From positions 4,017 to 68,016 of the forward strand of contig CADCCQ010000002.1 in the NCBI GenBank assembly GCA_902799955.1: DNA of 64,000 nucleotides, in the 5' to 3' direction. Positions 1 to 63,714 of this stretch are shown piece after piece. Position numbers and translations under genes: made by a program. The notes below the pieces were generated by a model, which was not told where the DNA came from, ran no database searches, and saw only the letters and a list, made by a program, of their open reading frames with translations. Position 1 is the stretch's first letter; each line of letters starts with the position of its first letter. The DNA is from an uncultured bacterium (lineage in GTDB: Bacteria; Verrucomicrobiota; Kiritimatiellia; RFP12; UBA1067).

Positions 1-132
1 CTCGCCGCCGTGGTCGGCCGCGATATCTGCCGCGTCGCGTTCGACGTGCCTGCGCGCCTCGTCCGCCGAATCGAACTTCCTCGTCTCGCTTCCGTAGCCC
101 GACGCGCTGAACCTGACCGTTGTCTTCGCCAT
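1..132 (-). CDS. hypothetical protein, N-terminal fragment (continues past window start)
   Basis: ATG at 132-130 with GAAAGGAA upstream. Reads MAKTTVRFSASGYGSETRKFDSADEARRHVERDAADIAADHGGE with no stop to position 1. Confidence 0.4.
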   Translation of the reverse strand, partial: MAKTTVRFSASGYGSETRKFDSADEARRHVERDAADIAADHGGE

Positions 133-158
133 CTTGGTGTTCCTTTCGATGATGATGA

Positions 159-407
159 TCAGCGGCTCGGCTTCTTGACCTTGAACACCTTATGCCCAAA
201 TATCTTGTCGGCGAAAGCGTCCGCCTCGCGCCTCCTCTGGTGGATTACGTCCTGAAGGCGGTTAACCTCATCCTGAAGGCGATGAACCTCGGCATCCAAC
301 TCCTTGAGCTTGCGAATCTCGTCATCGGTCGGCTTGCGCGTCTCTCGCGAGACAATCGAATAATCGGATTCGAGGCTCTTCAGGAATCCTGCTGAATATC
401 TGGCCAT
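159..407 (-). CDS. hypothetical small coiled-coil protein (82 aa)
   Basis: ATG at 407 preceded by GGAAGGA. First gene after promoter-leader cassette 1. Heptad-like KLKELDAEVHRLQDEVNRLQD. Confidence 0.5.
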   Translation of the reverse strand: MARYSAGFLKSLESDYSIVSRETRKPTDDEIRKLKELDAEVHRLQDEVNRLQDVIHQRRREADAFADKIFGHKVFKVKKPSR

Positions 408-479
408 GTCATCCTTCCTTTCTTTTCGGTTTTCTTTCGCGTCCCTCGCGGGGGCCTTTCCCCCGTTGGAACAGCACAC

Positions 480-508
480 ATGATGCCGTAATAATTCACG
501 AATAGCAA
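480..508 (-). promoter_or_regulatory. repeated promoter element, copy 1
   Basis: Minus strand: -35 TTGCTA (508-503), 17-nt spacer, -10 CATCAT (485-480). A/T-rich tract upstream (511-540). Shares the CCGTTGCTAT...TACGGCATCAT blocks with the other copies. Confidence 0.6.
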
Positions 509-565
509 CGGCCCGTCTGAAGATTTATGAAGATTTTTTCGCCCGCAGAACGGCGGCGATCCAGC

Positions 566-603
566 GCAAAAAAACGAACCCCGCCCTTGTGCAGGACGGG
601 GTC
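566..603 (-). terminator. rho-independent terminator after 627..935
   Basis: Minus strand: ACCCCG...CGGGGT stem followed by TCGTTTTTTTG. Confidence 0.55.
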
Positions 604-626
604 ATTGGCTTCGCTGTCGCCTTCGC

Positions 627-935
627 TCACTTCAGCTCGGTGCGGGCGACCACGTATGTGGCGGAGATGCAGTAGCATCTGACGCCCCTCGCGCCCGCGT
701 TCGGGTCGACGAGGACGTTCACCTCGCGCGGCAGCGGGGTGTCGAGAACCTTCTCCATGATTTGTCTTACCCACTCGCCCATCTCGGCCTTCTCGGCCTC
801 GCTCTTCGGCTCGTTCGTGTAGTCGGTGTCGTGGATCATCACCGCGTCGTCCCTCTCCAGGAACACATGCCCGAGCCTCGCCTCCTTGACGGCCTTCGCC
901 AGCGCGCTTGCCTCGTATGCCTCTTGTATCGTCAT
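627..935 (-). CDS. hypothetical protein (102 aa)
   Basis: ATG at 935 with AAAGGAGAA SD. Sits downstream of promoter copy 2. Confidence 0.5.
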   Translation of the reverse strand: MTIQEAYEASALAKAVKEARLGHVFLERDDAVMIHDTDYTNEPKSEAEKAEMGEWVRQIMEKVLDTPLPREVNVLVDPNAGARGVRCYCISATYVVARTELK

Positions 936-1007
936 TGTCGTTCTCCTTTGCTTTCGGTTTTCGGTTGCGTCCTTCCTGCGGGCCTTTCCCGCTCAAGGAA
1001 CGACACT

Positions 1008-1036
1008 ATGATGCCGTAATAATTCACGAATAGCAA
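1008..1036 (-). promoter_or_regulatory. repeated promoter element, copy 2
   Basis: -35 TTGCTA (1036-1031), 17-nt spacer, -10 CATCAT (1013-1008). Confidence 0.6.
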
Positions 1037-1158
1037 CGGCCCTTCTGCATAAATCTTCAGCGCCGAAAACCGAGCCGCCTTTTAAACCGACGCCAACCCA
1101 TCCGAGGCCGGAGCGGACTCGGACGCGGTTGGCGGTTTGAACCTGCCCTGGGCGGCTG

Positions 1159-1353
1159 TTACTTCTTCGCGGCCTTCTTGACCGCAGCCTTCGCCTTCGC
1201 GACGGGCTTCGCCGTCTTTGCGGCGGGCTTCTTCGTCGCAGCCCTGACTGCGGCCTTCTTGACCGCCACGGGCTTCGCCGCCGCCTTCGTCTTCGGCGCG
1301 GGCTTCTTGGCTGCGGGCTTCTTCGCGGGCTTGGCTGCTTTCTTGGTTGCCAT
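1159..1353 (-). CDS. histone H1-like Lys/Ala/Pro-rich DNA-binding protein (64 aa)
   Basis: MATKKAAKPAKKPAAKKPAPKTKAAAKP... AKP-type repeats throughout. AAGGAG lies 8 nt upstream of the ATG at 1353. Confidence 0.6.
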   Translation of the reverse strand: MATKKAAKPAKKPAAKKPAPKTKAAAKPVAVKKAAVRAATKKPAAKTAKPVAKAKAAVKKAAKK

Positions 1354-1514
1354 GTCGTCGGCTCCTTTCATGGTTTTTACGATACACATATTTTACCAAA
1401 GTCCTCCGCGTCGAACAACGGCAACGCCGGCTTTTCGACGAAAGGAAAGCCGTCGGCGTTTCGCATGAAACTCCGACGGCGCTCGAGAAAGCCTGGCGAG
1501 GATCGCCTTTCGCG

Positions 1515-2039
1515 CTATAGGAGGCTTGACGCCTCGCGGAGCGTCGACTCGCAGTCCTCGATCTGCGACTTCATCAGGCTTAGAATGCCGCGAAGCTCCT
1601 TTATGCCGCCCTTGCCAAGGCCGTCGGCAAGCGCAAGGCAGTCTATCCCCGCCAGCGATCCCGACACCTTCTGGAGCGCGACGCTGGCCTTACCCGCGTT
1701 CATGCAGATGACGTCGGGCTTCGGCTTCCTCGCCCTTGGATGCTTTGCCTTGTACTCGCTTCTTGTTTTCTCGCGGAACTTCGCGTTGCACCAGCCGATC
1801 AGTTCGTCGGTTCCCTTGCCGCAGAGCTTGGCAAGATGGTCGAGCATCATCTCGCGCGTCATCGTGTCGCTGTGCCTCGCGGCCTCGCCCATCGAGTCGC
1901 CCGACTCCATGCTCTTCCGCATGTCCGCAAACGTCAGCGTCGGCGGCATTTCCCCGACCGCCCACAGCTCTTCGGGATGCACCCGCTTGAACCATCCGAG
2001 GATGGTCTCGTCCAGCCCCCTGCCCTTTTTCTGTTTCAT
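1515..2039 (-). CDS. hypothetical protein (174 aa), paralogue of 2942..3508
   Basis: ATG at 2039 with GGAAAGGA SD. Shares the W-x2-RVHP-x-E...T-[VL]-TF...M motif with 2942..3508. Confidence 0.5.
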   Translation of the reverse strand: MKQKKGRGLDETILGWFKRVHPEELWAVGEMPPTLTFADMRKSMESGDSMGEAARHSDTMTREMMLDHLAKLCGKGTDELIGWCNAKFREKTRSEYKAKHPRARKPKPDVICMNAGKASVALQKVSGSLAGIDCLALADGLGKGGIKELRGILSLMKSQIEDCESTLREASSLL

Positions 2040-2075
2040 TTTATCGTCCTTTCCATTGAGTTGTTTACGCCGCAT

Positions 2076-2104
2076 ATGATGCCGTAGGTTTCTGATGATA
2101 GCAA
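2076..2104 (-). promoter_or_regulatory. repeated promoter element, copy 3 (divergent spacer)
   Basis: -35 TTGCTA (2104-2099), 17-nt spacer, -10 CATCAT (2081-2076). Confidence 0.55.
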
Positions 2105-2238
2105 CGGCCCATTTGAAGAATTATGAAGATTTCTTTCCGACCGCAGAAGAGGCGGATTTCCGGGCGATGAATCGCCCGCCACGGGACAGCAGGCGGACGA
2201 CGGCAAGACGCACGTCCCGCCGCAGGCGACGATGTGTA

Positions 2239-2376
2239 TCACGCCCGCGTCAGCGCGTCCTCAAGGGCGTACCCGATTGCCGCGAGTCGCGCGACGGCGA
2301 TGTCGAAGTCGCCGCCCGCGCAATAGCCCGCGATGACCTCGCGGGCCTCGCCTCTGAGTTTTTCGATCTCGTTCAT
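2239..2376 (-). CDS. hypothetical small protein (45 aa)
   Basis: ATG at 2376 preceded by AAAGGAGAG. MNEIEKLRGEAREVIAGYCAGGDFDIAVARLAAIGYALEDALTRA. Confidence 0.45.
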   Translation of the reverse strand: MNEIEKLRGEAREVIAGYCAGGDFDIAVARLAAIGYALEDALTRA

Positions 2377-2408
2377 GGTGTCGCTCTCCTTTCTCGTTTC
2401 GGCCAAAC

Positions 2409-2783
2409 CTACTCGACCGCCCAGGTCAGGCGTTCGTCGGGGAAGGACTGGAGCGCGAGGTCTGCAATCGCCTTCAGGCACACAAGCGCCTTCTTCGCGT
2501 TTCCGTCCGTGGCCTTCCAGTAGTCCGCGTCGGGCTGTGCTTCGCCGAGCGCGGCTATCGCCTTGTCGAGGACGGGAAGCGAATCCCTGACGCATCCGCC
2601 GTCGAGCGAACGCAGTCCATCGCCCCCGATCACCCGATGGAAGGTGCCCGCGTAGTTGTACGTGACGTACAGCCATGCGTCCTTCGTGCCGCCGACGGCA
2701 TACGTACCACCGGCGATCTCGTGCTTTTCCGGCAGGAGGACGTCCTTTCCGTCCTCGTGCTTGATCCTTACGCTGTAGCCCAT
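2409..2783 (-). CDS. hypothetical protein (124 aa)
   Basis: ATG at 2783. First gene after promoter copy 4. Confidence 0.5.
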   Translation of the reverse strand: MGYSVRIKHEDGKDVLLPEKHEIAGGTYAVGGTKDAWLYVTYNYAGTFHRVIGGDGLRSLDGGCVRDSLPVLDKAIAALGEAQPDADYWKATDGNAKKALVCLKAIADLALQSFPDERLTWAVE

Positions 2784-2837
2784 CTTCGTTTTCCTTTCTT
2801 AGTTCGCCCCAGGGGGCAGCTTTCACATGCAGACACT

Positions 2838-2866
2838 ATGATGCCGTAATCCGGCGGAAATAGCAA
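2838..2866 (-). promoter_or_regulatory. repeated promoter element, copy 4 (divergent spacer)
   Basis: -35 TTGCTA (2866-2861), 17-nt spacer, -10 CATCAT (2843-2838). Confidence 0.55.
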
Positions 2867-2941
2867 CGGCCTATTTTGAGAATTATCGAGACGCGAAAAT
2901 CGGCGGATGGAGGCGACCGCCCGCCCCCATCCGCCATCGTG

Positions 2942-3508
2942 CTATTCAGCCTTTAGCGGATAGCCCTTGGCCTTGAGAGCCTTGTCTACCTCGGCGGCGA
3001 GAACCTTGCGCTTCGCCTCGTCCGCCTTTCTCTCCTTGGCGTTCTCGTGCGGGGCTGCGGCAAGCCACAGACCGTACCAGACATCGTAGTCGGTGTCCGT
3101 CAGTTCGGCAAGACGCTCGAAGCAACGCTGGCGCTGCTCCGACTCCCCGCAGTCGAGGATCTCGTAGAAGTTCTCGCCGTCGCGCATCCGCCTCGCCAGC
3201 TCGACGAACGTGACCGTTTCGGAGAAGTCTTCCATCCAGTCGCGCTCGCCGGGATGGACGCGGAGCATCCAGTCGCGCACGACCTCGTTGAGCCCGCTCC
3301 TCTCGGGGTCGCCGCCAAGCTCCTCGATCTGTCTGTCGAGTTCGACCTTGAGCGCGTCCATCACCGCCTTGACCGCCTTTGGATTTGCGATGCCGGACTT
3401 CCTGCCGTCGAGGTGCGTCACCTCGATTAGCTTCGCGCCCCGCTCCGCGTAGGTGCGGCGGCAGCGTATGAGGTTGTCCCTCAGCTCGGTCTTCTGCTTT
3501 TTCGTCAT
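2942..3508 (-). CDS. hypothetical protein (188 aa), paralogue of 1515..2039
   Basis: ATG at 3508. Contains VRDWMLRVHPGERDWMEDFSETVTFVELARRM, compared with ILGWFKRVHPEELWAVGEMPPTLTFADMRKSM in 1515..2039. Confidence 0.5.
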   Translation of the reverse strand: MTKKQKTELRDNLIRCRRTYAERGAKLIEVTHLDGRKSGIANPKAVKAVMDALKVELDRQIEELGGDPERSGLNEVVRDWMLRVHPGERDWMEDFSETVTFVELARRMRDGENFYEILDCGESEQRQRCFERLAELTDTDYDVWYGLWLAAAPHENAKERKADEAKRKVLAAEVDKALKAKGYPLKAE

Positions 3509-3583
3509 GGTTCTTTTCCCTTTCGTTTCTGTTTTCGGTTTTTGCCGCGCCTCCCGCTTGGGGAGGTCGCGGCGGTTTGAAAT

Positions 3584-3865
3584 TCATGCCCAGAAGGATT
3601 CGTAATCCTCGCCATCGTCGGCGTCCTCGTCGTAGCCGTTCGCCGCGTCCTCGGCGCGGTCTATCATCTCCTCCATCTCGTCGAGCTTCTCGCGCATCGC
3701 CTTGATCGCCTCGCGCATCTTCGCCCACTCGTCGAAGTCGAATTCGCGTAGGTGCGTCTCGTCAAGCGTCCGCTCGGTGTCGGTCGCAATCTCCTCGCCG
3801 AGGTTTTCGAGGTCTTCGGCAATCGCCTGCGCCCCGTAGGTCGTCGTCGTGTTCATCGTCGTCAT
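3584..3865 (-). CDS. highly acidic small protein (93 aa; alternative in-frame start at 3856)
   Basis: D/E-rich throughout, for example EDAANGYDEDADDGEDYESFWA at the C-terminus. First gene after promoter copy 5. Confidence 0.5.
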   Translation of the reverse strand: MTTMNTTTTYGAQAIAEDLENLGEEIATDTERTLDETHLREFDFDEWAKMREAIKAMREKLDEMEEMIDRAEDAANGYDEDADDGEDYESFWA

Positions 3866-3929
3866 CCTTTCGTTTTCGGTTTTCGTTTCGCCCCTCTTCG
3901 CGGGCCTTTCCCGCTCAAGGAACGCCAGT

Positions 3930-3958
3930 ATGATGCCGTAATAATCCAGGAATAGCAA
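3930..3958 (-). promoter_or_regulatory. repeated promoter element, copy 5
   Basis: -35 TTGCTA (3958-3953), 17-nt spacer, -10 CATCAT (3935-3930). Confidence 0.6.
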
Positions 3959-4183
3959 CGGCCCATTTGAAGATTTTTCATTATTTTTTCGCCCGCGAAA
4001 TCGCCGCGAAAAACGCCCTGTTTGCCCACCTCGCGGAGGCCGGGGAAACGCCCGCCCAACGCCCACGGACGCGTCCTGCGGCGACTGTGGCGCAATAGCG
4101 GGGAGAACGGAAAAGCCGACGGAGAGAGCGTCCCTCCGTCGGCCAAACGAATACCGAATTCATGCGGCCTTGCCGCGATTGCG

Positions 4184-4726
4184 TCATTTCATGGCGACCC
4201 ACCTCCTTTTCTCGATTGGCTTCAAAGCGCCGAAGGCGTTAGGCAATCCCCAGTACCTCGCGCCCGTCGCGCAGGTGATGCGGTAGCCGTCGGGGTAGGG
4301 CTTGCCCTCGCGGAGCTTCCGCGTCTCGGGCGTCATCGCGTAGGTGAACGCGGGAACGCGGTAGCGGATCGCGCGGCTTCCCATCAGCTCGGCGTGGACG
4401 ATGACCTTGACGCAGTTGTAGACGCTGGGGTACCCCTCGTAGAGGTCGAGGCGGTGAAGCTCGGTCTTCGTGACGAGGTATAGGACGCCCTCTACGCGGC
4501 TTCCGCGCGAACGCTCGATGTCCGCGTAGAGCCTCTCGACGAGCCGCCAGCCCTTGAGCGTGGCGCGGCCCACGGCCCGCGCCTCGGGTATGCGGCGGCG
4601 TATCTGCTCGGGGTTCATGTTTGACCCGTAGGCGAAGTACAGGAATGTGTCGGGGCTCGTGGCGAAGCTCCCCTCGCACGCGCTCCAGTTCCAAGTCGGG
4701 CGTTTGCATTCGTCTGCAATCTTCAT
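4184..4726 (-). CDS. gamma-glutamylcyclotransferase / AIG2-like family protein (180 aa)
   Basis: FAYGSNMNPEQI N-terminal motif and LDLYEGYPSVY catalytic-Glu motif. AAAGGAG SD before the ATG at 4726. Confidence 0.7.
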   Translation of the reverse strand: MKIADECKRPTWNWSACEGSFATSPDTFLYFAYGSNMNPEQIRRRIPEARAVGRATLKGWRLVERLYADIERSRGSRVEGVLYLVTKTELHRLDLYEGYPSVYNCVKVIVHAELMGSRAIRYRVPAFTYAMTPETRKLREGKPYPDGYRITCATGARYWGLPNAFGALKPIEKRRWVAMK

Positions 4727-4795
4727 CTTTTCGCTCCTTTCGTTTTACGCTGGCCTTGCCTCGCCTCCCCTCGCGGGGAGGCGGGGCGTCCGCCT

Positions 4796-5686
4796 TCAGT
4801 CGTGCCGCCCGTCCTTCCAAGCCGCCGAGCCGGGCAGGTTCTTGCAGAGGTGCTTGCGCATCGACTTGAAGGTCTCGCCGTTCGCGCCTAGCCTCAAAAG
4901 GAAAACGCGGAAGTCGTACTTCGCGCTCGCCTCGCTGTAGGGGCGCGGGTTCTTCGCGCTCGCCGCCTTCGCGCTCTTCGCCTTGAGAACCATCAGGAGG
5001 TCGATCAGAACCGCCGCCTTGATGACACCCGCGTGGAGGCTCTGCTCGTGGTAGCGGAACTCGACCGTCCCCTTGGTTCCGTTCCAAAGGTTGTGGAGGT
5101 TAAGGGCGCGGTAGCGCGCCGAGGAGTAGTGGCTGTTGCGGTCGCGGCATCCCCCGTAGTAGGCGTCCGCGAGCTTCGCCATCGTCGGGTTGTGCATCGC
5201 GCAAATCTTGTCGACGAAGGTGTGGTCGGTGCGGCGCGTGTAGCTGCTGATGCGAGCCTCCTGCGTCCCCGTCGCCTTGAGGATCAGCGTCTCCTGTTTG
5301 TAGAAAATCTTGACGAGGTTCTTGATCTGCGTCGGGGTCATCCCCTGCGCCCCGACGTGGACGTGGAGCCCCGTGCGGCTGTTGACCTTCGCGTGGGCTT
5401 TCCTCATCGCCCTCACCACCTTCTGGAGGGTGTCCATGTCGCCGTAGCGAAGAATCGGCGTGACCACCTCGGCGCTCGTTCCCCAAAGGCTGCCGTCGCT
5501 CACGATGTTCCACTTGCGTCCGTCGGGCATCGTCACCACCCAGTTGTGGAGGTGGTAGCCTTCGTACCTCGCCGTGCCGCCCGTGACCTCCGCGACCACC
5601 TTGGCCGCCCGCTCCTGGCTGATTCCCTCGTACTCGAGTTCGCACCCGTAGGTGAGGCTCGCCAATTCTGCTTCCGTTATCGTCAT
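4796..5686 (-). CDS. amidoligase (glutamine-synthetase-like, Amidoligase_2 type), 296 aa
   Basis: YGCELEYEG, TGLHVHVG and GTVEFRYHE motifs typical of the phage/plasmid amidoligase family. First gene after promoter copy 6. Confidence 0.7.
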   Translation of the reverse strand: MTITEAELASLTYGCELEYEGISQERAAKVVAEVTGGTARYEGYHLHNWVVTMPDGRKWNIVSDGSLWGTSAEVVTPILRYGDMDTLQKVVRAMRKAHAKVNSRTGLHVHVGAQGMTPTQIKNLVKIFYKQETLILKATGTQEARISSYTRRTDHTFVDKICAMHNPTMAKLADAYYGGCRDRNSHYSSARYRALNLHNLWNGTKGTVEFRYHEQSLHAGVIKAAVLIDLLMVLKAKSAKAASAKNPRPYSEASAKYDFRVFLLRLGANGETFKSMRKHLCKNLPGSAAWKDGRHD

Positions 5687-5758
5687 CTTCTTGTCTCCTG
5701 TTTTTCGGTTTTCGTTTGCGTCCCTCGCGGAGGCCTTTCCCCCGTTGGAACAGCGCAT

Positions 5759-5787
5759 ATGATGCCGTAATACTTCACGGATAGCAA
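5759..5787 (-). promoter_or_regulatory. repeated promoter element, copy 6
   Basis: -35 TTGCTA (5787-5782), 17-nt spacer, -10 CATCAT (5764-5759). Confidence 0.6.
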
Positions 5788-6123
5788 CGGGGTATTTGAT
5801 TATTTTTGATTATTTTTCACTATTTTTTATAACTTTGGATAACGGGGCTATTATCGCCGCTTACGGGCGGTTTACGCATCTCGGAAACGCGGGATTCCTG
5901 CGGCTCGGCAAAAGAAATCCCGACGCCCGCCGCGATTCGGCGGCAGACGCCGGGAGTGTGTTTGAAAAAAGAGCCGGACGGGGCGGAGGTCTCGGGTGCG
6001 GCATGGGCAACGATGGTCGCGCCGCACCGTTTCGGCGCTTTCGGCGGAGAGGCGCGAAAACCGTCGCGCCAAGGGAGTTCCGCCTACTCGCGTCGTGCCT
6101 CGCCCCGTCCGGCGAGATTGGCT

Positions 6124-6609
6124 TTACTTCGCGTCGGTCTCCGCGTTCCTGTATCCCGCCTTGCGGTAGGCGACCCAGTCGCCCGATTCGATGACGGGCG
6201 CATCCTTGCGGAGGTTGTTCATGATGTAGACCCAGGCGAGGACGTTGCCTCCGCCGACGAGGTGAACCTGAATCTGCTCGCGGCGGTAGAGGTGCGGGTA
6301 GCCCTCAAGCCTGTCCATCGACTTGAAGCCGTCGTCGTTGACGGTCAGCACCTCGCCCTTGACGTGCGTCCGTCCGCGCTTCACGAACGCGGGGAAGCGG
6401 CAGCCCGTGTCGTAGATGGTGCCTGTGGTCCACGCCTTCTGTCGGCGGGCGTTCCCCGCCCAGTGCGCGTTGGCTTCGCCCGCGATGAGCGTCCCGTAGA
6501 CGAAGACCTTGTGTTCCTCGTCGCGGCAGGGAAGGCCGAGAGCCTTTTCGCACCGCCTCCGCACGGACGGAGGGAGGTGCCTGATTTCAAGTTCGATTGG
6601 CGTTTGCAT
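6124..6609 (-). CDS. gamma-glutamylcyclotransferase / AIG2-like family protein (161 aa)
   Basis: VFVYGTLIAGEANAH and MDRLEGYPHLYRR motifs. GAAAGGAA SD before the ATG at 6609. Confidence 0.7.
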   Translation of the reverse strand: MQTPIELEIRHLPPSVRRRCEKALGLPCRDEEHKVFVYGTLIAGEANAHWAGNARRQKAWTTGTIYDTGCRFPAFVKRGRTHVKGEVLTVNDDGFKSMDRLEGYPHLYRREQIQVHLVGGGNVLAWVYIMNNLRKDAPVIESGDWVAYRKAGYRNAETDAK

Positions 6610-6698
6610 TTTCGAGTTCCTTTCTATTTTACCATTTTTGGTTTCGGCTGTGCGCCCGAGCCTCGGCGCAAGCACCGAGGCACAGGACGCGGGATTGT

Positions 6699-7040
6699 TC
6701 AGTCGACCTCGGTGGCGTTCACCTCGGTCTTGTCGAGTTCAAGGTCGCTCACCTTGATGTCCTCGGCGGTGAAGCGGTCTCGGACAATCTCCTCGGCCTC
6801 GCTCTCGCTCGACGCCCTGACGTCGAACGAGCCCGCGAAGGTCGCATGGAGACTCACCGAGTAGGTGCGCTTCTCTTCGTCGCCTACGCCGTAGTCATCG
6901 GGGGCGCATTCGCTCACGCACACGGCAAGCGTCCGTCCGCCTCCGGCTTCGATCCAGATGGTGTGGCCGTCCGAGTCGCACTTCGCGTTCGCGGCCTTGA
7001 GCGCGTCCATGAGGATGCTGTGAATCTTCATCTCGTCCAT
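6699..7040 (-). CDS. hypothetical protein (113 aa)
   Basis: ATG at 7040. Compact spacing within the operon driven by promoter copy 7. Confidence 0.45.
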   Translation of the reverse strand: MDEMKIHSILMDALKAANAKCDSDGHTIWIEAGGGRTLAVCVSECAPDDYGVGDEEKRTYSVSLHATFAGSFDVRASSESEAEEIVRDRFTAEDIKVSDLELDKTEVNATEVD

Positions 7041-7109
7041 TTTCGTTTCCTTTCTCGTCGTGGTTTGAGGGTTGCCTCCACCCCCGCCTTGGGGGTGGAG
7101 GCGTTCGCC

Positions 7110-7319
7110 TTACCTCGCGGCGAGGGCTGCGGCCTTGGCGACCTGCAGCTGGCGAATCTGGTAGGCGAGGCTGCGCATCTCGACCGCGTAGGTTTCGAGG
7201 GCGGGAAGGTTCTCCCGCGTCAGCGGAAGCTCCCCGACCATCCTCGCGAACTTGCGCACCCGCATCTCCTTGACCATGAGCTGTGCGTTCAGCTCTGCCA
7301 TCATCTCTTCGTCGCCCAT
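7110..7319 (-). CDS. hypothetical small protein (69 aa)
   Basis: ATG at 7319. First gene after promoter copy 7. Confidence 0.45.
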   Translation of the reverse strand: MGDEEMMAELNAQLMVKEMRVRKFARMVGELPLTRENLPALETYAVEMRSLAYQIRQLQVAKAAALAAR

Positions 7320-7389
7320 TTTCTTGCCTTTCCTTTTTTGGTTTTCGTTTGCCTTCGGGTACTCCCTTTTCCCCGTTGGAACAGCGCAT

Positions 7390-7418
7390 ATGATGCCGTA
7401 ATGTTCCAGGAATAGCAA
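7390..7418 (-). promoter_or_regulatory. repeated promoter element, copy 7
   Basis: -35 TTGCTA (7418-7413), 17-nt spacer, -10 CATCAT (7395-7390). Confidence 0.6.
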
Positions 7419-7583
7419 CGGGGTATTTGAAGATTTTTTATTATTTTTTACACCTTTTTATAAGTTTCGATTATTGGGCGATTTACGGCGGTTTTGGCCT
7501 TCGGAAGAGGCGGAATTTCGGCGTTCGCAGGGAGGCTCGGCGAGGCGAGCTGACGGATGGGGAGTGCGGGCAAATCCCGCAAG

Positions 7584-7622
7584 ACGAAAAATGCCCGCCC
7601 CGCGTCAATGCGGAACGGGCAT
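7584..7622 (-). terminator. rho-independent terminator after 7646..8011 (A/T runs on both sides)
   Basis: ATGCCCG...CGGGCAT stem. Followed by TTTTTCG on the minus strand and TTTTC on the plus strand. Confidence 0.55.
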
Positions 7623-7645
7623 TTTCAATGAGGGCGACGGCGGAT

Positions 7646-8011
7646 TCAGATGCCGAGATCGTTTAGGCGACGGCGCAAGGCAAGTTCCTGCGCCTCGGAG
7701 AGACCGACGGAGTTGCATTCGCCGTCGTCGGCGCAGACGAAAGTGTCGCCGACGATGACATCGTTGTGAAAAAGAATCTCCGCGAGAATCGTCGCCTTGG
7801 GATTGTAGGATCGCTCCTTGAACTTTCCCTCCTCGTCGAGAAAAAGGTCAAGCCCGTCGAGGCCGTTGCCGGAAAGACACCACCGCTCAATGTCGCCGCC
7901 GACCATCGACTGCATCGTCTCAAGCGTGAGGTTGCCGTCGGCGTCGGTCTCGACTTCGACAAACTCCCAATCACCTCTCGCGGGGATTTTCAGAATCTTC
8001 GCCTTTGCCAT
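7646..8011 (-). CDS. DUF3846-like protein (about 121 aa)
   Basis: MAKAKILKIPARGDWEFVEVETD...LETMQSMVGGDIE matches the DUF3846 N-terminal pattern as I recall it. AAAGGAG lies 7 nt before the ATG at 8011; an ATG at 8017 is an alternative start. Confidence 0.55.
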   Translation of the reverse strand: MAKAKILKIPARGDWEFVEVETDADGNLTLETMQSMVGGDIERWCLSGNGLDGLDLFLDEEGKFKERSYNPKATILAEILFHNDVIVGDTFVCADDGECNSVGLSEAQELALRRRLNDLGI

Positions 8012-8071
8012 TTTCATGCTCCTTTCTGTTGCATCACCCCTCGGCGTTTCCGCCGAGGGGCGTGACATTCT

Positions 8072-8305
8072 TCAGCGGTCGATGAGCCCGACGAGCCCGG
8101 ACAGGAATCCGTCCGTCATCTCCGCCGCCGCAAGCGTTCCCGAAAACGCTCCGCGCAGTTGAAACACCCCGCTGGCGTTTCCCTTCTTGGCGAGCTTGAA
8201 GGCCATCTCCCTCGCATCCTTCATCGTGTCAGCCATCGCCGAAATCCGGCTGGCGAGGATGTTGATCCTCCTCTGCTCCAGCGTCTCGTTCTGCATCTCT
8301 TCCAT
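8072..8305 (-). CDS. hypothetical small protein (77 aa)
   Basis: ATG at 8305 with GAAAGGAAAA SD. Confidence 0.45.
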   Translation of the reverse strand: MEEMQNETLEQRRINILASRISAMADTMKDAREMAFKLAKKGNASGVFQLRGAFSGTLAAAEMTDGFLSGLVGLIDR

Positions 8306-8369
8306 CGTCGTTTTCCTTTCTTTGCGCCCCGCCCTCGGCGTTCCCGCCGAGGCGCAGGGCATTGTGTTT

Positions 8370-8777
8370 TCAGTCTTCGTCGTCCTCGCCCTCGTCGCGG
8401 TCGAGGTCGTCGTCGATGAAGTCCATCCGCGAGTCCTCGGTGTTGGGCGTCGTCTCAAGTTCGGGGCGCTCCTTGATGAAGGCGAACATCTCCTCGACGA
8501 GGCGTTCGGTGAAATCCGTGTAGGCGTCCTCGCCGAGGCTTCCGTTCCAGACCTCGGCCGGGAACTCCGAGCCGCGAATCTTCTCAAGGTACCTCGCCGT
8601 GCCGTTGCAGGTTTCCTTTCCGTAGCCGACGTTGATCTTGTCGCCGTCGTTGTACCAGCGGTACCAGATGCGGTCGACCGCGCGGATTATTTCGCCCGCT
8701 ACCGTCTCGGCCTTGCCGGAGGCCGGCATCAGCCGCTCCTCCATCGCCGCCCATTCTTTCTTCTGCTCTTCCGTCAT
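8370..8777 (-). CDS. hypothetical protein with poly-acidic C-terminus (135 aa)
   Basis: ATG at 8777. Ends in DFIDDDLDRDEGEDDED. First gene after promoter copy 8. Confidence 0.5.
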   Translation of the reverse strand: MTEEQKKEWAAMEERLMPASGKAETVAGEIIRAVDRIWYRWYNDGDKINVGYGKETCNGTARYLEKIRGSEFPAEVWNGSLGEDAYTDFTERLVEEMFAFIKERPELETTPNTEDSRMDFIDDDLDRDEGEDDED

Positions 8778-8848
8778 TTTCGTCTTCCTTTCTTTTGGTT
8801 TTCGTCTGTCTTTCGGGTACTCCCTTTTCCCCTCAAGGAACGCTACAC

Positions 8849-8877
8849 ATGATGCCGTAATAATCCAGGAATAGCAA
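8849..8877 (-). promoter_or_regulatory. repeated promoter element, copy 8
   Basis: -35 TTGCTA (8877-8872), 17-nt spacer, -10 CATCAT (8854-8849). Confidence 0.6.
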
Positions 8878-8911
8878 CGGCCCATCTGAAGATTTATGAA
8901 GATTTTTCGAG

Positions 8912-8950
8912 GGCGAAAAGCCGCCGCAGAAACGGCGGCTGCGGCGGCTT
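8912..8950 (-). terminator. hairpin terminator after 8958..9263
   Basis: 12-bp stem AAGCCGCCGCAG/CTGCGGCGGCTT, then TTCG on the minus strand (short U-run). Confidence 0.45.
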
Positions 8951-8957
8951 CCGTCGG

Positions 8958-9263
8958 CTACTCCATGTCGTTGCACGAGAGTCCGTTGAGGTGCATCTCC
9001 TCGTCGGTGTTCGCGTCCATCTCGACGACGCAAGCCCAGCGGAAACACGCCTTCAGCTCGTCCTTCCAGTCGCGGATGAGCGTCGGGACCATCCGGCATC
9101 CATCCGAACCATCGTTCTTCATAACTGTCTTCGGCTCGTGCGGGGCGCGGCTTATCTCGCGCTCACCCGCCCCACGGTACGCCCAGCCAGCCCTCCAGAA
9201 GATCCGCTTCGCGGGATGCGCCTCAAGGTCTGCGACCACGGTTTCGTAGTTCACTGTGTTCAT
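8958..9263 (-). CDS. hypothetical protein (101 aa)
   Basis: ATG at 9263 (MNTVNYETVVADLEAHPAKR...). Confidence 0.45.
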   Translation of the reverse strand: MNTVNYETVVADLEAHPAKRIFWRAGWAYRGAGEREISRAPHEPKTVMKNDGSDGCRMVPTLIRDWKDELKACFRWACVVEMDANTDEEMHLNGLSCNDME

Positions 9264-9327
9264 CTTCGGTTTCCTTTCTCTGCGTCCCGCACCTCGGCAT
9301 GAATGCCGAGGCACAGGACATTTGGTT

Positions 9328-9519
9328 TCAGCCAAGAACTTTCTTCATCTCCTCGGGTGCAAGCTTGATGAAGATTTTTTCAAGCTCGCCGAAGAGTCCG
9401 TCACCTCCCCGCTTGTGGTAGGAGTTGAAGAACTCCGGGCCATGCTCGGAGGCGACGCCCATGATGGCGTCAAAGGCATCCGCGAGTTGCTGGCGTTCAG
9501 TCTTTGTAAGTTGGTTCAT
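9328..9519 (-). CDS. hypothetical small protein (63 aa)
   Basis: ATG at 9519. ORF as given in the supplied track. Confidence 0.45.
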   Translation of the reverse strand: MNQLTKTERQQLADAFDAIMGVASEHGPEFFNSYHKRGGDGLFGELEKIFIKLAPEEMKKVLG

Positions 9520-9582
9520 TGTCTTTTTCCTTTCTTTCTGTTGAGTTGCCCCGCCGCGAGATGCGGCGGAGGCTGTTGAAAT

Positions 9583-9954
9583 TCAATCCTCGCCACCGTC
9601 CTGCTCGGTTTCTTTCCAGGCATTGTTGTCGACGATGTCCGTGAACCACCGTCCGCCGATATCGAAGCGCGGCATCGTCACCCTATCGGAGTGTTCCATG
9701 TCCGCGAGCTTGACGCACACGAGCGTGCAATCAGTCTCGGGGTAGGCGTTCGTGCCTGTCAGCCCGTACATGCGGTTCATCACCGACCCCTCGATTGTGT
9801 AGACGTCCTCGCGCTTGAGAGGTGTCAGCTCCTTCACCCAGTCGAGGAGTTCCTTGAGGTTCTCCTCGTCTGGCGCGAGCCCCTCAATAGTCAGCGACCA
9901 GTCCTTGTAGAGCTCGTCAAGCTGCGCCTTCGTCGTTACCTTGATTATGTTCAT
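9583..9954 (-). CDS. hypothetical protein (123 aa)
   Basis: ATG at 9954 (MNIIKVTTKAQLDELYKDW...). First gene after promoter copy 9. Confidence 0.5.
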   Translation of the reverse strand: MNIIKVTTKAQLDELYKDWSLTIEGLAPDEENLKELLDWVKELTPLKREDVYTIEGSVMNRMYGLTGTNAYPETDCTLVCVKLADMEHSDRVTMPRFDIGGRWFTDIVDNNAWKETEQDGGED

Positions 9955-10026
9955 CTTCGTTGCCTTTCTTTCTTGGTTTTCGTCTGCCTTTCGGGTACTC
10001 CCATTTCCCCTCAAGGAACGCTACAC

Positions 10027-10055
10027 ATGATGCCGTAATAATCCAGGAATAGCAA
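10027..10055 (-). promoter_or_regulatory. repeated promoter element, copy 9
   Basis: -35 TTGCTA (10055-10050), 17-nt spacer, -10 CATCAT (10032-10027). Confidence 0.6.
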
Positions 10056-10112
10056 CGGGGTCTGCGAAGATTTATGAAGAATTATTTTATGAAGATTTTT
10101 GCGGATACCCCG

Positions 10113-10141
10113 TTGCTATTATCCGAATATTACGGCATACT
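10113..10141 (+). promoter_or_regulatory. inverted (plus-strand) copy of the repeated promoter element
   Basis: TTGCTA (10113-10118), 17-nt spacer, CATACT (10136-10141). Back-to-back with copy 9 across a shared A/T-rich tract. Points into the 3' end of the minus-strand late operon. Confidence 0.45.
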
Positions 10142-23392: not shown

Positions 23393-26300
23393 TTACTGGA
23401 ATGTCATAGTTGTGCCGCCGCCCGCCCCGTCCTTGAGGAGTTCTGCGGTCTTCTTCGTGTGCTTCACGATCTCCTGCGTGGCTGTGAGCATCCGCTGCTC
23501 CATCTGGTTGCCACGGAGCGACTGCGCGGCGTTCGCGTAGAACGTCCCCTGCGGCTTCGCAATAGAAGTCTGCTTCGCGGTCGCCTCCTGCGCCGAGCGG
23601 AGCTTCGCCTCGTACTTGTCCACCAGCCCCTCGGCGAGGGAGTAGGCGTCCTGCGCCTTGCGGATTCGCTTCTCCTCGTCGTCGGACACTTCTCCGTCGG
23701 CGGAAGCCTCGGCGAGCGCCTTTCGGAACTCGTCCTTCGCGGCTGCGGCGGACACCTTCGACTGGAGGATGAGGTCGTTCAGCATCTTCATCCCAGCAGC
23801 CGCATCGTCCTTCAGGGTAGCCTCGACCTTGCGGTCTGTCTCGCCCTCGCTGCGCCTGCGGCTTATGTCCTCCGCCGTCTGGTCGAACGACTCCTGGAGA
23901 TCCGCGATCTCCTTGTCGAACTTCCGCTTCGCCTTTGCCTCCGCCGACTTGATTCGGCGCTCCGCCGTGGCGTCCGCCTCGGCGAGACGGCCTTCGAGGT
24001 CTGCGATCTTCTCCAAGTCCTTGTCCTTCTTCGACTTCTCGTAGGACAGGACTGTTGAGATCAAGGCCTTGTACTCGTCGCGGAGTTCCCGTATGTCGGA
24101 GATTTCGTTCTCCAGTTCGCTCCGCGTCTCGCGGATTAGCCGCTTCTCGATTTCGGAGGCCTTCTTCGACGCGGAGTCGGCCTCGTCCATGCTGGCGTGC
24201 TTCTCGCTCCGCCCCGTCTCGACTTTCTCCTCCAGCTTCTCGTGTTCTGTCTTGCCGCCGGTCAGCGCGTCCTTGTCGCCGTCGCGGATGGCGTTGAGGC
24301 GTTCCTGCGCCTCGGCCATCTGCTTCATCATGGCGCGCATCTTCTCGCCGTTCGCCTCGATCTCCTTCGCGGCCTTGTCGCCACGGAAGGTTATCGTGTT
24401 CCACGTGTTCACCCAGACGCCGCAGAGCGACTTGTTCTCGTCGTGAAGCTCGTTGAGGTTCTTCCGCAGCTCAGACATCTCCGCCTCAATCTGGTGGATC
24501 GCCTGCGCCTTCATCGCCTCGTTGAACTTCTCCTGCGCGTCCGCCGCCATCGAGATGGAACGCGAAGCTCGGTCTATCGACACGCCGAGGTCGCCGTAGC
24601 GACCCTTGAGCTGCCCCGCGAGCTTCTCCGCCTCCGCCATCTCCGCGTTGGAGAGGTTCTCCTTCTCCGCGAGCTGCTGGAGCCGCTCCATGCGGAGCTG
24701 GTCCGTCGCACGGAGCTGGTCGCCCTTGTCGCGCATCTTCGACATCTCGTCGGAGAGGTTCGCCGTGTGCTTTGTGGCCGATGCCATGTAAGCGCAGAGG
24801 CCGCCCAAGGCCGCGACTACTCCGATCAGCACCCACGTTATCGGAATCGCGCAGAACGCGGTCGCCGCAGTGGAGGCCGCGAGGTAGCCAGCAGCAACCA
24901 CCTTCGTGGTCGCGGCGAGGGCTACGTTCGCAGTCGCCGCCACACCCGCCGTCAGCGCGGCTTTCGCGTGGGACAGGGTCAATGCCCGCCCGACCGCCGC
25001 GAACGCCACGTGCGCCGCCGTAGCCGCCTTTGCCGCGATTGTGCCGATGGTCTGGGCGGCTGCGTGGGCTTTTGCGCTCACCGTGGCGGCTATAGTGGCC
25101 GAATTGAGGCCTTTCAGGGCGGCTGTCACCGCCGTGAAGCGGCTGGCGATGGCGGATTTCGCCGCCGCAGCCGCCTCCGCGTTCGACATGAGGACGAGAC
25201 TCGCCGCTATCTGCTTCGCGCGGCTGTCTATCGGCAGATTCAGGGCGGCGAGAAGCCGCGAAGTCCCGACCATAGCTGGGATCGCCGCGTTCCTGTAGTC
25301 CGAAAAAGCCCTCGCCATGAGCGAGAACGCCCCCTGTACGAGGACGCCCTTGCCCGCAAGTGCCGCCTGGACTCCGGCGAACGCGGAGAACACGCCGGAC
25401 AAGACGCCGATCCCCGTGGAAAGCACACGGCTCACGGTGCCTATCGTCAGGAGCGCCGCGCCGAGCGCGGCAATCGAACCCGCCGTCACCGCGATGGAGG
25501 CGACAAGTCCCTTGTTCGCCTCGATCCACTTGGTGAACGAGTTTATAACTGCCGTTATCCGCTCCACCATCGGCTTGATGGTCGAGTTGAGAGCCTCGCC
25601 CGTGGCGTTCATCGCGCCCTCGACCGCCGACTGGAAGAGGCGGAACGAGCCGCCGATCCCGGCGTCCATCGCCCTGGCGGTGGCGTCAGCCTGGCCGGAG
25701 ACATCCTTGAGCTTCGCAAGGAACTCGTCCAGCTCGCCGATGTCCTTCGTAAGGGACATCCCGGACATCATGCCCCTGACGTCGAACACGTCCTTCATGA
25801 AGGCGAGCCGCTCGGCAGTCGGAAGCTTCTTCGTCGCCACCGCGATGTCGCGCATCACCTCCGCCATCTTGCGGAGGTTGCCGTTCGCGTCCGTGGCCTC
25901 CACCCCGACTTCGCGGAGCGTCTTCTGAACCTTCACGTCCGCGAACTGCACATACGCCTTGCGGAGCGCCGTTCCGGCGAGGGAACCCTTGACGCCCATG
26001 TTGGCCATGACGCCCAGGGCGGCGCACAACTCGTCGAGCGATTCGCCTGCCGCCGCAGCCTGCGGCCCAGCCATCTTGAGTCCCTCGAAGAGGTCGGTCA
26101 AGGTCTGGGCGGACCCGTTAGCGGTGGCGGTCAGGATGTCCGAAACCTGCGACATCTTCGATGCCTCTAGACCGAAGATGCGCATCGAGTTCGCCGCGAT
26201 GTCGGCGGACTCCGCAAGTTCCGTGCCGGTTGCACGGCTCAAATTCAAAACGGAGGAGATCGAGGCTTCAATCTCCGTCCTGTCGAATCCCATTCGACCA

Positions 26301-33312: not shown

Positions 33313-33512
33313 AGCGCACCTCCCCCCGCCGCCATCTTCGTGATGCGACTCGGCAGCCGTTTGCCCTTGAGGGCGTCCTTCGATGCATAGTAGTTGAGGA
33401 GCTTGATGAGGTCAGCCGCCGAGTGGTTCTCCACGACCTGCCCGTCAACCTCCACCTTCTTGGGCGAGAGGAGGAGATTCTCCATTATCTTCTCGATCTT
33501 TGACTGATCCAT
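33309..33512 (-). CDS. gpW-like head-tail joining protein (67 aa)
   Basis: Size, position upstream of the portal, and the KKVEVDGQVVENHSAADLIKLLNY pattern resemble lambda gpW. Confidence 0.5.
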   Translation of the reverse strand: MDQSKIEKIMENLLLSPKKVEVDGQVVENHSAADLIKLLNYYASKDALKGKRLPSRITKMAAGGGAL

Positions 33513-34536: not shown

Positions 34537-34604
34537 GGCGGCTCCCTCCTTCCCGGCCTTTATCCTCTTCGCACAATGGGGAATACATGGCATCCCCTCA
34601 CTCT

Positions 34605-51451: not shown

Positions 51452-51457
51452 GGCAGC

Positions 51458-54000: not shown

Positions 54001-54002
54001 TC

Positions 54003-59049: not shown

Positions 59050-59125
59050 TGGAGCGAGGAACGGGATTCGAACCCGCGACAACCACCTTGGCAAGGTGGC
59101 ACTCTACCAACTGAGTTATCCTCGC
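59050..59125 (-). tRNA. tRNA-Gly(GCC): tRNA-Gly (anticodon GCC), CCA encoded
   Basis: Acceptor GCGAGGA/TCCTCGC, anticodon stem-loop CCACC-TTGCCAA-GGTGG, T arm GCGGG-TTCGAAT-CCCGT. 76 nt. Confidence 0.85.
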
Positions 59126-59189
59126 TTTGAAAACGAACAATAGTATATCACATTCCCACCATAAAAAGCAAGAGGGAATTTTGATTTTT

Positions 59190-61917: not shown

Positions 61918-62038
61918 ATTGCGGACATTATACCACAACAAAGCCTTGTTGTCACAACTTCCGTGCATCATTCCTCTTCGTCGGAATTCGCACATACGAG
62001 CATTGCACCGCAAATTTCCCCGTGGCGTTATGGGGTTG

Positions 62039-63028: not shown

Positions 63029-63031
63029 GGT

Positions 63032-63699: not shown

Positions 63700-63714
63700 C
63701 CCCCCACCGCCTTT

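Follow-up and report, generated by a model that had tools for sequence, protein, structure and literature searches.

A prophage amidoligase and two gamma-glutamyl cyclotransferases as a candidate module for adding and removing gamma-glutamyl groups

What would a temperate phage gain from encoding, next to each other, an enzyme predicted to form gamma-glutamyl amides and enzymes predicted to break them? On its face, a ligase together with an immediate remover is a futile cycle. The question is raised by three genes found in a 64,000-nucleotide stretch of DNA from an uncultured Kiritimatiellia bacterium (the window), in which a preliminary description had recognized a phage-borne amidoligase gene flanked by two gamma-glutamylcyclotransferase-like (GGCT) genes. 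We address it here from the transcription units upwards, through the families and conservation of the three proteins, to the chemistry that they may perform.

The prophage and its transcription units

The three genes are carried by an integrated siphovirus-like prophage, the host of which is a bacterium of the gut or rumen. Tape measure, portal, capsid-protease fusion, terminase and integrase genes were recognized in the window with PHROGs and Pfam profiles, and host genes occupy its positions 59-64 kb, in agreement with the earlier statement that the three genes are phage-borne. A position outside the prophage was ruled out for them, since related loci keep the block between the tail genes and the integrase. 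No match was returned when the locus was compared at the DNA level with 50,697 phage records. The genes sit in a block of ORFan genes with repeated promoters, of which the core (CCGTTGCTAT-N11-TACGGCATCAT) occurs in nine exact copies on the minus strand of the window, against zero expected. The features of the two units concerned are the following, in the order of transcription:

7390-7421, minus strand: promoter core copy 7 (CCGTTGCTAT-N11-TACGGCATCAT), from exact pattern match, cassette alignment and repeat family D2
7110-7316, minus strand: p68, first gene of the copy-7 unit (68 aa; ORF)
6699-7040, minus strand: p113, second gene of the copy-7 unit (113 aa; sub-threshold DpnD/PcfM-like match)
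6124-6609, minus strand: GGCT2, predicted gamma-glutamyl cyclotransferase of the YtfP/GGACT subfamily (161 aa; PF06094)
5918-5955, minus strand: intrinsic terminator with a 16-bp stem and T tract, closing the copy-7 unit
5759-5790, minus strand: promoter core copy 6, driving amidoligase and GGCT1
4796-5686, minus strand: amidoligase (Amidoligase_2), predicted GS-like ATP-dependent carboxylate-amine ligase (296 aa; PF12224, fold model and motifs)
4762-4783, minus strand: intercistronic hairpin in the amidoligase/GGCT1 gap, 9-bp GC stem with a GCGA loop and without a T tract (read from the sequence)
4184-4726, minus strand: GGCT1, predicted gamma-glutamyl cyclotransferase of the human-GGCT (C7orf24) subfamily (180 aa; PF06094)
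4114-4144, minus strand: intrinsic terminator with a 14-bp stem and T tract, closing the amidoligase-GGCT1 unit

The ORFs of the three enzymes are present at these coordinates (4796-5686, 4184-4726 and 6124-6609), each with an AGGAG-type ribosome-binding site 7-10 nt 5' of its ATG. Amidoligase and GGCT1 are one promoter-to-terminator operon, which begins with promoter copy 6, has an intergenic gap of 69 nt and ends with the terminator at 4144-4114. The copy-6 cassette (approximately 5690-5830) is composed of an AT-rich upstream stretch, the core and a purine-rich leader containing a hairpin, and at least ten related loci have an identical core at a distance of 60-100 nt upstream from the amidoligase gene. 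In the copy-7 unit, GGCT2 comes last, behind p68 and p113. The nine exact promoter copies and the terminators confirm what had been proposed before, that the amidoligase and one GGCT gene share cassette copy 6 and that the second GGCT gene belongs to copy 7. No Pfam or PHROG profile matched p68, homologues of which (43-85% identity) are found 5' of the module in many related loci; p113, which is kept in some related loci, matched no PHROG and reached 20.4 bits with PF14207 (DpnD/PcfM), under the cut-off of 25.

Three predicted enzymes and a conserved gene pair

Profile searches placed all three proteins above the Pfam cut-offs in the families that had been suggested for them (Amidoligase_2; GGACT/AIG2), and as sequence matches their Pfam and PHROGs scores are far beyond chance. 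Judging from the translations, the three are predicted to be intact enzymes with complete catalytic motifs. No N-terminal hydrophobic signal sequence was recognizable by inspection in any of them, and NCBIfam assigned no family to the amidoligase, GGCT1 or GGCT2. For the amidoligase, the ELEY, HVHVG and EFRYH motifs named in the preliminary description were read directly in the translation, and the assignment holds: PF12224 matched at 2.9e-44 (152.2 bits against a cut-off of 22, profile positions 3-238 of 245) and phrog_2443, 'amidoligase', at 2.4e-74. Residues E16, E18, E73, H108, H110, E209 and R211 are invariant across 39 ligase sequences with 59-89% identity. The family is large, with more than 4,000 clusters at 50% identity; when ten longer homologues (420-956 aa) were searched for fused domains, Amidoligase_2 alone was recognized, barring a sub-threshold DUF2924 in P0178. 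In the literature searched, no PF12224 enzyme with biochemical characterization was found.

By sequence, the amidoligase matched none of the PDB chains, even at E = 10. Its AlphaFold2 model (pLDDT 91.9, pTM 0.92) has as top Foldseek neighbours in the PDB exclusively GS-like ligases, with a probability of 0.96-1.0 and TM scores of just 0.35-0.5 at 10-16% identity, among them YbdK (1r8g/1tt4), glutamine synthetases, the gamma-glutamylmethylamide synthetase GmaS (9qur), PafA (4bjr) and glutamate-cysteine ligases. Every significant PDB neighbour of the model is an ATP-dependent gamma-glutamyl or carboxylate-amine ligase, and its BFVD neighbours are annotated phage amidoligases, with TM scores up to 0.70.

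The AIG2/GGCT motifs reported for the two other genes (YG[ST] and EGYP) were likewise read directly in both, and phrog_2520, 'gamma-glutamyl cyclotransferase', matches both proteins (9e-20 and 8e-27). Nevertheless, the two genes had been treated as equivalent and they are not, since GGCT1 belongs to the human-GGCT and GGCT2 to the YtfP/GGACT subfamily and their identity of 32% extends over 47 residues only; on the same grounds, recent duplicates were ruled out. GGCT1 matched PF06094 (GGACT/AIG2) at 1.4e-15 (58.4 bits; cut-off 22.8) and carries the motifs YFAYGSN and LYEGYPSVY, the predicted catalytic Glu lying in LYEGYP. Over residues 16-173 it aligned with human GGCT (2pn7/2i5t; 2.4e-7), the LYEGYP Glu standing opposite Glu98, and YFAYGSN and LD.YEG.P are invariant in 27 homologues. 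The PDB entry 3cry is the E98Q mutant of human GGCT. GGCT2 matched PF06094 at 4.9e-27 (95.3 bits; cut-off 22.8) and carries VFVYGTL and RLEGYPHLY, with the predicted catalytic Glu in RLEGYP. Among solved structures, E. coli YtfP (1xhs; 1.7e-7) is closest to it and mammalian GGACT comes next, and the RLEGYP Glu aligns with the corresponding position of both; VFVYGTL and MD.LEG.P are invariant in 25 homologues, and the protein is 35% identical to PaP3 orf42.

A GGCT1-type gene lies directly 3' of the ligase gene in essentially every related Kiritimatiellia/Lentisphaerae locus with sequence at that place (about 30), and GGCT2-type genes are near the ligase in most related loci, at variable positions. 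Among the 40 listed records of distant phages, whose ligase is only 34-40% identical to the present one, 39 also have the ligase gene followed on the same strand by a GGCT-type gene, and most of these are gut phages of the Ca. Heliusvirales; the gap is mostly about 50-350 nt, and 0.9-1.2 kb in three records. For the gut phages of the Ca. Heliusvirales, the pair was counted in at least 33 of the listed genomes, and Bacillus phages have it too; the Heliusvirales paper makes no mention of the ligase or GGCT genes. The partner of the ligase in other phage lineages is a protein resembling class-II glutamine amidotransferases, next to which a GGCT may or may not be present (PMC3890496, PMC10580990), and such an alternative amide-breaking partner fits a make-and-break logic. 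The ligase-GGCT gene pair is real and conserved and is already known from many phages. It is not new in itself, being routinely annotated in dozens of deposited phage genomes, and the secondary sources that cite Iyer et al. (2009), as far as they relate that work, bear out the earlier remark that the neighbourhood had been predicted and is still uncharacterised.

Proposed chemistry and alternative roles

We read the three genes, with moderate confidence, as a conserved enzyme module with which a temperate phage would 'write and erase' gamma-glutamyl groups. By analogy with related enzymes, its most likely chemistry would be the ATP-dependent gamma-glutamylation of an amine, followed by removal of the group as 5-oxoproline. 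If the ligase follows its solved relatives, ATP would activate a carboxylate as an acyl-phosphate, which would be joined to an amine to give a gamma-glutamyl amide. The carboxylate would most probably be the gamma-carboxylate of glutamate; since the ligase resembles the GS-like ligases only distantly, glutamate as acyl donor is an assumption. In the co-transcribed GGCT1, again as in solved relatives, the free alpha-amino group of the glutamyl residue would attack the amide, which would release 5-oxoproline and regenerate the amine, and GGCT2, of YtfP/GGACT type, would perform the same reaction on alkyl- or epsilon-amine conjugates. As the ligase would add the gamma-glutamyl group and the cyclotransferases would remove it, a small molecule or peptide in the cytoplasm would carry the group only transiently, as a handle or as protection. 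Tagging of proteins finds no support, given that the known enzymes of the GGCT family have small-molecule substrates. The phage could benefit through modification of cell-wall precursors, through takeover of the host or through counter-defence. No intervening step or third partner between ligase and cyclotransferase was identified at the locus.

A role in cell-wall modification is unlikely. The enzymes would then alter cytoplasmic peptidoglycan precursors, for example by adding and trimming a gamma-linked glutamyl on the diamino acid of the stem peptide, and would block superinfection or ready the wall for lysis. Citing papers attribute this reading of the phiEco32 and LUZ24-type modules to Iyer et al. 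(2009) (PMC11945000, PMC11318856, PMC10580990); the cyclotransferase in those modules and GGCT2 belong to one subtype, and the stand-alone promoter-gene-terminator units look like lysogenic-conversion morons. However, the window shows no detectable ATP-grasp, GATase or COOH-NH2 ligase partner, and the bacteria that harbour the pair (Clostridia, Bacillus and Kiritimatiellia) differ greatly in their walls. In addition, the alpha-amino group of D-Glu in peptidoglycan is capped by L-Ala, so that, given the established GGCT mechanism, the native stem peptide could not be a substrate of a cyclotransferase, and the literature searched contained no experimental support for this role.

It is unlikely that the module serves counter-defence, modifying or destroying an amine-containing host immune signal or effector, or protecting a phage component, early in infection. 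The position of the genes in a variable block of small ORFans, all of them preceded by the same strong promoter, is consistent with such a role, as are the DUF3846 gene and the weak DpnD/PcfM-like gene nearby; furthermore, the ligase and YtfP-type GGCT of Bacillus phage 055SW001 open a block with a host-nuclease inhibitor and recombination genes, and related ligases adjoin dcm on the conjugative plasmid pCW3. On the other hand, none of the approximately 20 neighbouring accessory proteins searched with Pfam and PHROGs matched a known anti-defence family, or any other family save DUF3846 and the sub-threshold DpnD/PcfM. Four DNA methyltransferases and a SAM synthetase, an obvious anti-restriction kit of the prophage, are already encoded elsewhere, and no defence pathway is known in which a gamma-glutamyl amide is used. 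The name of counter-defence region, earlier given to these surroundings, is without homology support in those searches and has to be regarded as a guess.

A bolder proposal seems quite unlikely to us, in which the strictly coupled operon of ligase and then cyclotransferase would not be a biosynthetic pathway and would act instead as an ATP-driven converter of glutamate to 5-oxoproline with the amine as catalyst, or as a transient capper of a specific host amine. The phage would thereby drain or rewire the pools of glutamate and ATP in its host, or inactivate a regulatory or immune molecule that contains an amine, and the YtfP-type paralogue would extend this to alkyl- or epsilon-amine conjugates. 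If true, phages would have a host-takeover or counter-defence chemistry of a new kind, common to a very widespread gut phage order.

An auxiliary metabolic role, in which the enzymes would supplement the host gamma-glutamyl cycle, glutathione or nitrogen metabolism to the benefit of the lysogen, is distinctly improbable. PHROGs classes the cyclotransferase as 'moron, auxiliary metabolic gene and host takeover', and such a role was proposed for Poriferisphaera phage ZRK32, the GGCT of which matches GGCT2, but that proposal was built on growth effects and not on enzymology (PMC10945688). Moreover, the ligase is neither GshA nor GshB nor glutamine synthetase, having no PDB sequence match, no NCBIfam family and only a distant fold similarity, and a strictly coupled ligase and cyclotransferase would give no net assimilation. 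Hypermodification of DNA, with the ligase adding an amino acid to a modified base of the phage DNA and the cyclotransferases trimming it, is very hard to credit although viral metagenomes have amidoligase and amidotransferase genes together with gene clusters for thymidine hypermodification (PMC8989533), since the genes lie in the accessory block and not in the replication module, the phage encodes several ordinary methyltransferases instead, and the general PHROGs and Pfam profiles gave no hydroxymethyl-dU kinase or aGPT-Pplase annotation among the large ORFs scanned in the replication and packaging modules.

Comparison with known systems

At the level of single enzymes, the modelled ligase appears to have in common with the YbdK/GCS2 and GS-type ligases (GS, GmaS, PuuA-like, GCL and PafA) the fold and the E-x-E, H-x-H and E-x-R metal/phosphate-binding strands, and from this analogy amide formation by it is expected to be ATP-dependent; it is, however, much smaller (296 aa) than these enzymes, and the TM scores (0.35-0.5) and identities (10-16%) are low. 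GGCT1 aligns nearly full length with human GGCT (C7orf24), including YGSN and Glu98, and GGCT2 aligns with E. coli YtfP and mammalian GGACT, including YGTL and the catalytic Glu, in both cases as gapped alignments of low identity (E about 1e-7). Both have N-terminal extensions of about 30 residues compared to the solved relatives, that of GGCT2 being partly conserved among its own relatives.

The gamma-glutamyl group serves as a transient handle in butirosin biosynthesis (BtrJ/BtrG) and in putrescine catabolism (PuuA/PuuD). BtrJ is an ATP-grasp enzyme and BtrG a GGCT-fold enzyme, PuuA is GS-like and PuuD is a hydrolase, and both pathways include intervening tailoring enzymes. By analogy, the present module would share with them the logic of an ATP-dependent gamma-glutamyl ligase followed by a remover, whereas no tailoring enzyme was found at the present locus.

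The LUZ24/PaP3-like and phiEco32-like phages carry a five-gene module (COOH-NH2 ligase, amidoligase, class-II GATase, ATP-grasp and GGCT), which shares a PF12224 ligase and a YtfP-type cyclotransferase with the present locus (PMC3890496). When the PaP3 proteins were compared with the window by tblastn, the GGCT alone was found at that BLAST-level sensitivity (1e-8; the others at E >= 0.08); the PaP3 ligase is too distant from the present one for a BLAST alignment, and the ATP-grasp, GATase and COOH-NH2 ligase are absent from the window by the same search. In contrast, the present locus has a human-GGCT-type enzyme, which that module is without.

The pair of Firmicutes phages (phrog_2443 and phrog_2520) belongs to the same two Pfam/PHROG families as the present one and has the same order, strand and short gap (PMC11318856), as in Ca. 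Heliusvirales PV036410-PV036459, Terrisporobacter phage TPDSL_ph1 and the C. clostridioforme LM41 prophages, and its ligase is mostly a stand-alone protein of about 300 aa, like the one studied here. The differences are a ligase identity of 34-40% with no DNA similarity, a host from the PVC group (Kiritimatiellia/Lentisphaerae), the extra YtfP-type cyclotransferase, and the setting, which here is a repeated-promoter accessory block whereas the Firmicutes pair adjoins terminase, ParB or methyltransferase genes. The window alone opens no new experimental route, and culturable phages with the same genes exist (Bacillus phage 055SW001, LUZ24 and phiEco32). To an amidoligase-GGCT pair that is among the commoner uncharacterised enzyme pairs of phage genomes, the window adds a host phylum that is new for the pair, a cleanly defined operon and two distinct cyclotransferase subtypes alongside the ligase.

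The three enzyme genes and their families

The genes that the preliminary description had reported as an amidoligase (hereafter the ligase) and two gamma-glutamyl cyclotransferases (GGCT) are intact minus-strand open reading frames at the coordinates it gave, each with an AGGAG-like ribosome-binding site 7-10 nt 5' of its ATG:

4184-4726 (-), GGCT1, 180 aa
4796-5686 (-), ligase, 296 aa
6124-6609 (-), GGCT2, 161 aa

The motifs it quoted are seen in the translations (ELEY, HVHVG and EFRYH in the ligase; YFAYGSN and LYEGYPSVY in GGCT1; VFVYGTL and RLEGYPHLY in GGCT2), and profile searches confirmed both families, with the ligase matching Amidoligase_2 (PF12224; 2.9e-44, 152 bits, cut-off 22) and the cyclotransferases matching GGACT (PF06094; 1.4e-15 for GGCT1 and 4.9e-27 for GGCT2). 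In PHROGs, the ligase corresponds to phrog_2443 'amidoligase enzyme' (2.4e-74) and both cyclotransferases to phrog_2520 'gamma-glutamyl cyclotransferase', while none of the three has an NCBIfam model. The Pfam entry PF12224 reportedly points to Firmicutes in which the family neighbours an Aig2-family cyclotransferase.

GGCT1 and GGCT2 are not duplicates, their mutual identity being only 32% over 47 residues. Human GGCT (C7orf24) aligned with residues 16-173 of GGCT1, including the YGSN loop and the catalytic Glu98, and the closest alignment of GGCT2 was to E. coli YtfP, followed by the mammalian gamma-glutamylamine cyclotransferase. Among the homologues of each (25-27 distinct sequences, 44-90% identity), neither the loop nor the catalytic Glu motif varies.

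A PDB sequence search with the ligase detected no relative. Its AlphaFold2 model, built from an alignment of 39 homologues in which E16, E18, E73, H108, H110, E209 and R211 are invariant, is confident (pLDDT 91.9, pTM 0.92). In the PDB, every one of its top structural neighbours has the glutamine-synthetase fold and belongs to the ATP-dependent carboxylate-amine or gamma-glutamyl ligases, a likeness that is distant (TM 0.35-0.5). These include YbdK (1r8g, 1tt4), glutamine synthetases, gamma-glutamylmethylamide synthetase (9qur), the Pup ligase PafA (4bjr) and glutamate-cysteine ligases.

Repeated promoter cassettes in a prophage

The three genes belong to an integrated, siphovirus-like temperate phage. 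Between about 50 kb and position 1 its genes, including a portal gene and a capsid-protease fusion, all lie on the minus strand. Ordinary bacterial genes occupy 59116-64000, and therefore the prophage boundary is placed near 58-59 kb:

23393-26644 (-), tape measure, followed by tail genes
34657-36936 (-), large terminase
43-50 kb (-), replication genes
56815-58110 (+), serine integrase
60053-61690, GAF/sigma-54 activator, host chromosomal
62039-63028, NAD-dependent epimerase, host chromosomal
63151-63699, histidine-kinase ATPase, host chromosomal

A divergent S-adenosylmethionine synthetase (37748-38773, -; phrog_1569, listed as 'unknown function'), matched by all three MetK domains, is surrounded by four DNA methyltransferase genes (33445-34593; 39047-39766; 39681-41198, a ParB-methyltransferase fusion; 40960-43080), and it seems that the phage itself provides the methyl donor for heavy self-methylation. 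A low-GC island (50675-54680 and 56297-58110, both +; GC about 0.50 vs 0.62) carries genes for components of an ABC-three-component (ABC-3C) anti-phage system (CTD7 domain, 4.7e-13; DUF3732 ATPase, 1.5e-37), adjoining a DUF2924 protein and the large serine integrase, and looks like defence cargo at the integrase end.

The last 10 kb (positions 1-10,100) form a block of small genes without detectable homologues, in which CCGTTGCTAT-N11-TACGGCATCAT occurs in nine exact copies (0 expected by chance, pattern match):

480, 1008, 2076, 2838, 3930, 5759, 7390, 8849 and 10027 (-), promoter cores, spanning 480-10058

Every copy has an AT-rich stretch upstream and a small-gene unit behind it; the leader 3' of each core, about 80 nt long, combines a conserved hairpin with a purine-rich tract and a ribosome-binding site. 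All 21 specified bases recur unchanged in 27 related prophage loci, where protein identity has fallen to 60-70%. This conservation goes far beyond the needs of a -35/-10 pair and suggests that a dedicated sigma factor or regulator reads the core. A tenth copy with two mismatches (10110-10141, +) stands back-to-back with copy 9 and points antisense into neighbouring unannotated minus-strand genes (10.2-12 kb).

Downstream of copy 6 (5759-5790) come the ligase, a 69-nt gap, GGCT1 and a 14-bp terminator (4144-4114), so that ligase and GGCT1 form a single operon; downstream of copy 7 (7390-7421) come two small genes, GGCT2 and a 16-bp terminator (5955-5918). Because this order of promoter, genes and terminator matches the layout first described, with the ligase and one GGCT under copy 6 and the second GGCT under copy 7, that description was correct.

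In the ligase-GGCT1 gap, a 9-bp GC stem closed by a GCGA (GNRA) loop and lacking a T tract (4762-4783, -) could tune the ratio of both enzymes. A 34-nt GC-rich hairpin (GCCTCGG...CCGAGGC), perhaps serving in RNA processing or stability, has three intercistronic copies within the accessory units (6655-6688, 8327-8360 and 9286-9319), one directly 5' of GGCT2. Two ORFan proteins, each with its own promoter cassette (1515-2039 and 2942-3508, -), are paralogous (28% identity over 112 residues, 8e-10) and have a common 'W..RVHP.E' motif. Other accessory genes encode a 64-aa Lys/Ala/Pro-rich, histone-H1-like basic protein (1159-1353, -) and a strongly acidic 92-aa protein (3584-3862, -), conceivably a DNA mimic; Pfam and PHROG gave no match for either.

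Linkage of the genes in related loci

Gut and rumen metagenomes hold many close homologues of the ligase (59-98% identity); among genome assemblies, these occur almost entirely in MAGs of Kiritimatiellia, Lentisphaerae and Verrucomicrobiota. A GGCT1-type gene lies directly 3' of the ligase wherever the sequence reaches (about 30 related loci); in at least ten of these loci, the identical promoter core precedes the ligase by 60-100 nt. In two of these loci (L003, 7010-7492; L005, 3863-4345) the gene caller missed GGCT1; the public call places a 203-aa ORF on the other strand, which is an artefact hiding the conserved pair, as tblastn reveals a GGCT1 homologue (83% identical). The GGCT2-type gene is usually upstream of the ligase, being downstream instead in, for example, loci L017, L025, L026 and L031.

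In the phage collection, the ligase gave 72 protein-level matches (34-40% identity or lower), mostly in Ca. Heliusvirales gut phages of Clostridia, and 39 of 40 records among the matches listed have a GGCT1-type match immediately 3' on the same strand, a very strong evolutionary linkage. GGCT2-type matches were found in phiEco32-like, LUZ24/PaP3-like and Bacillus phages and in Poriferisphaera phage ZRK32, the Bacillus phages carrying a ligase with both cyclotransferase types. The ligase family comprises 4,146 clusters (50% identity, E <= 1e-3), with more distant members on Clostridium perfringens conjugative plasmids. In these Tcp plasmids, such as pCW3 (NC_010937.1, 4455-5861), a 469-aa family protein is encoded just 3' of dcm and a DUF4417 gene, with no GGCT annotated nearby; the family also moves on plasmids without the cyclotransferase.

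Possible function and comparison with known systems

The most economical reading is a scheme in two steps, in which the ligase would spend ATP to form a gamma-glutamyl amide on some amine and the co-transcribed GGCT1 would remove the gamma-glutamyl group by cyclisation to 5-oxoproline, while GGCT2 would act on alkyl or epsilon-amine conjugates. What has been shown is membership of the families, catalytic motifs that are intact, one operon and the strong linkage; glutamate as acyl donor, the nature of the amine and whether a further step intervenes are our inference. In other phage lineages a class-II amidotransferase-like hydrolase accompanies the ligase, either replacing GGCT or alongside it (PaP3 annotation; PMC3890496; PMC10580990), which supports the general make-and-break logic.

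Modification of cell-wall precursors, auxiliary metabolism, host takeover and counter-defence are all candidate roles. In the passages of later papers that cite it, the proposal of Iyer et al. (2009) is that the phiEco32/LUZ24-type module modifies the cell wall so as to prevent superinfection (PMC11945000, PMC11318856, PMC10580990); a study of a planctomycete phage regarded the genes as nitrogen-metabolism AMGs (PMC10945688), and amidoligases co-occur with thymidine hypermodification clusters (PMC8989533). The label of counter-defence region gained no support from homology: none of about 20 neighbouring proteins matched a known anti-defence family.

The statement that such neighbourhoods had been predicted and are still uncharacterised agrees with the citing papers, a 2023 paper writing that the functions 'remain to be explored', and with our finding no biochemical characterisation of the system in the literature searched. 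LUZ24-like phages carry a five-gene set of COOH-NH2 ligase, amidoligase, GATase, ATP-grasp and GGCT (PMC3890496; also PaP3 annotation). A tblastn search of the window with the PaP3 proteins did not detect the partners ATP-grasp, GATase and COOH-NH2 ligase; C. clostridioforme prophages carry the same phrog_2443/phrog_2520 pair (PMC11318856). The system is a further case of a known and widely annotated gene neighbourhood whose function is uncharacterised, to which it makes the modest additions of a new host phylum and a second, distinct cyclotransferase subtype.
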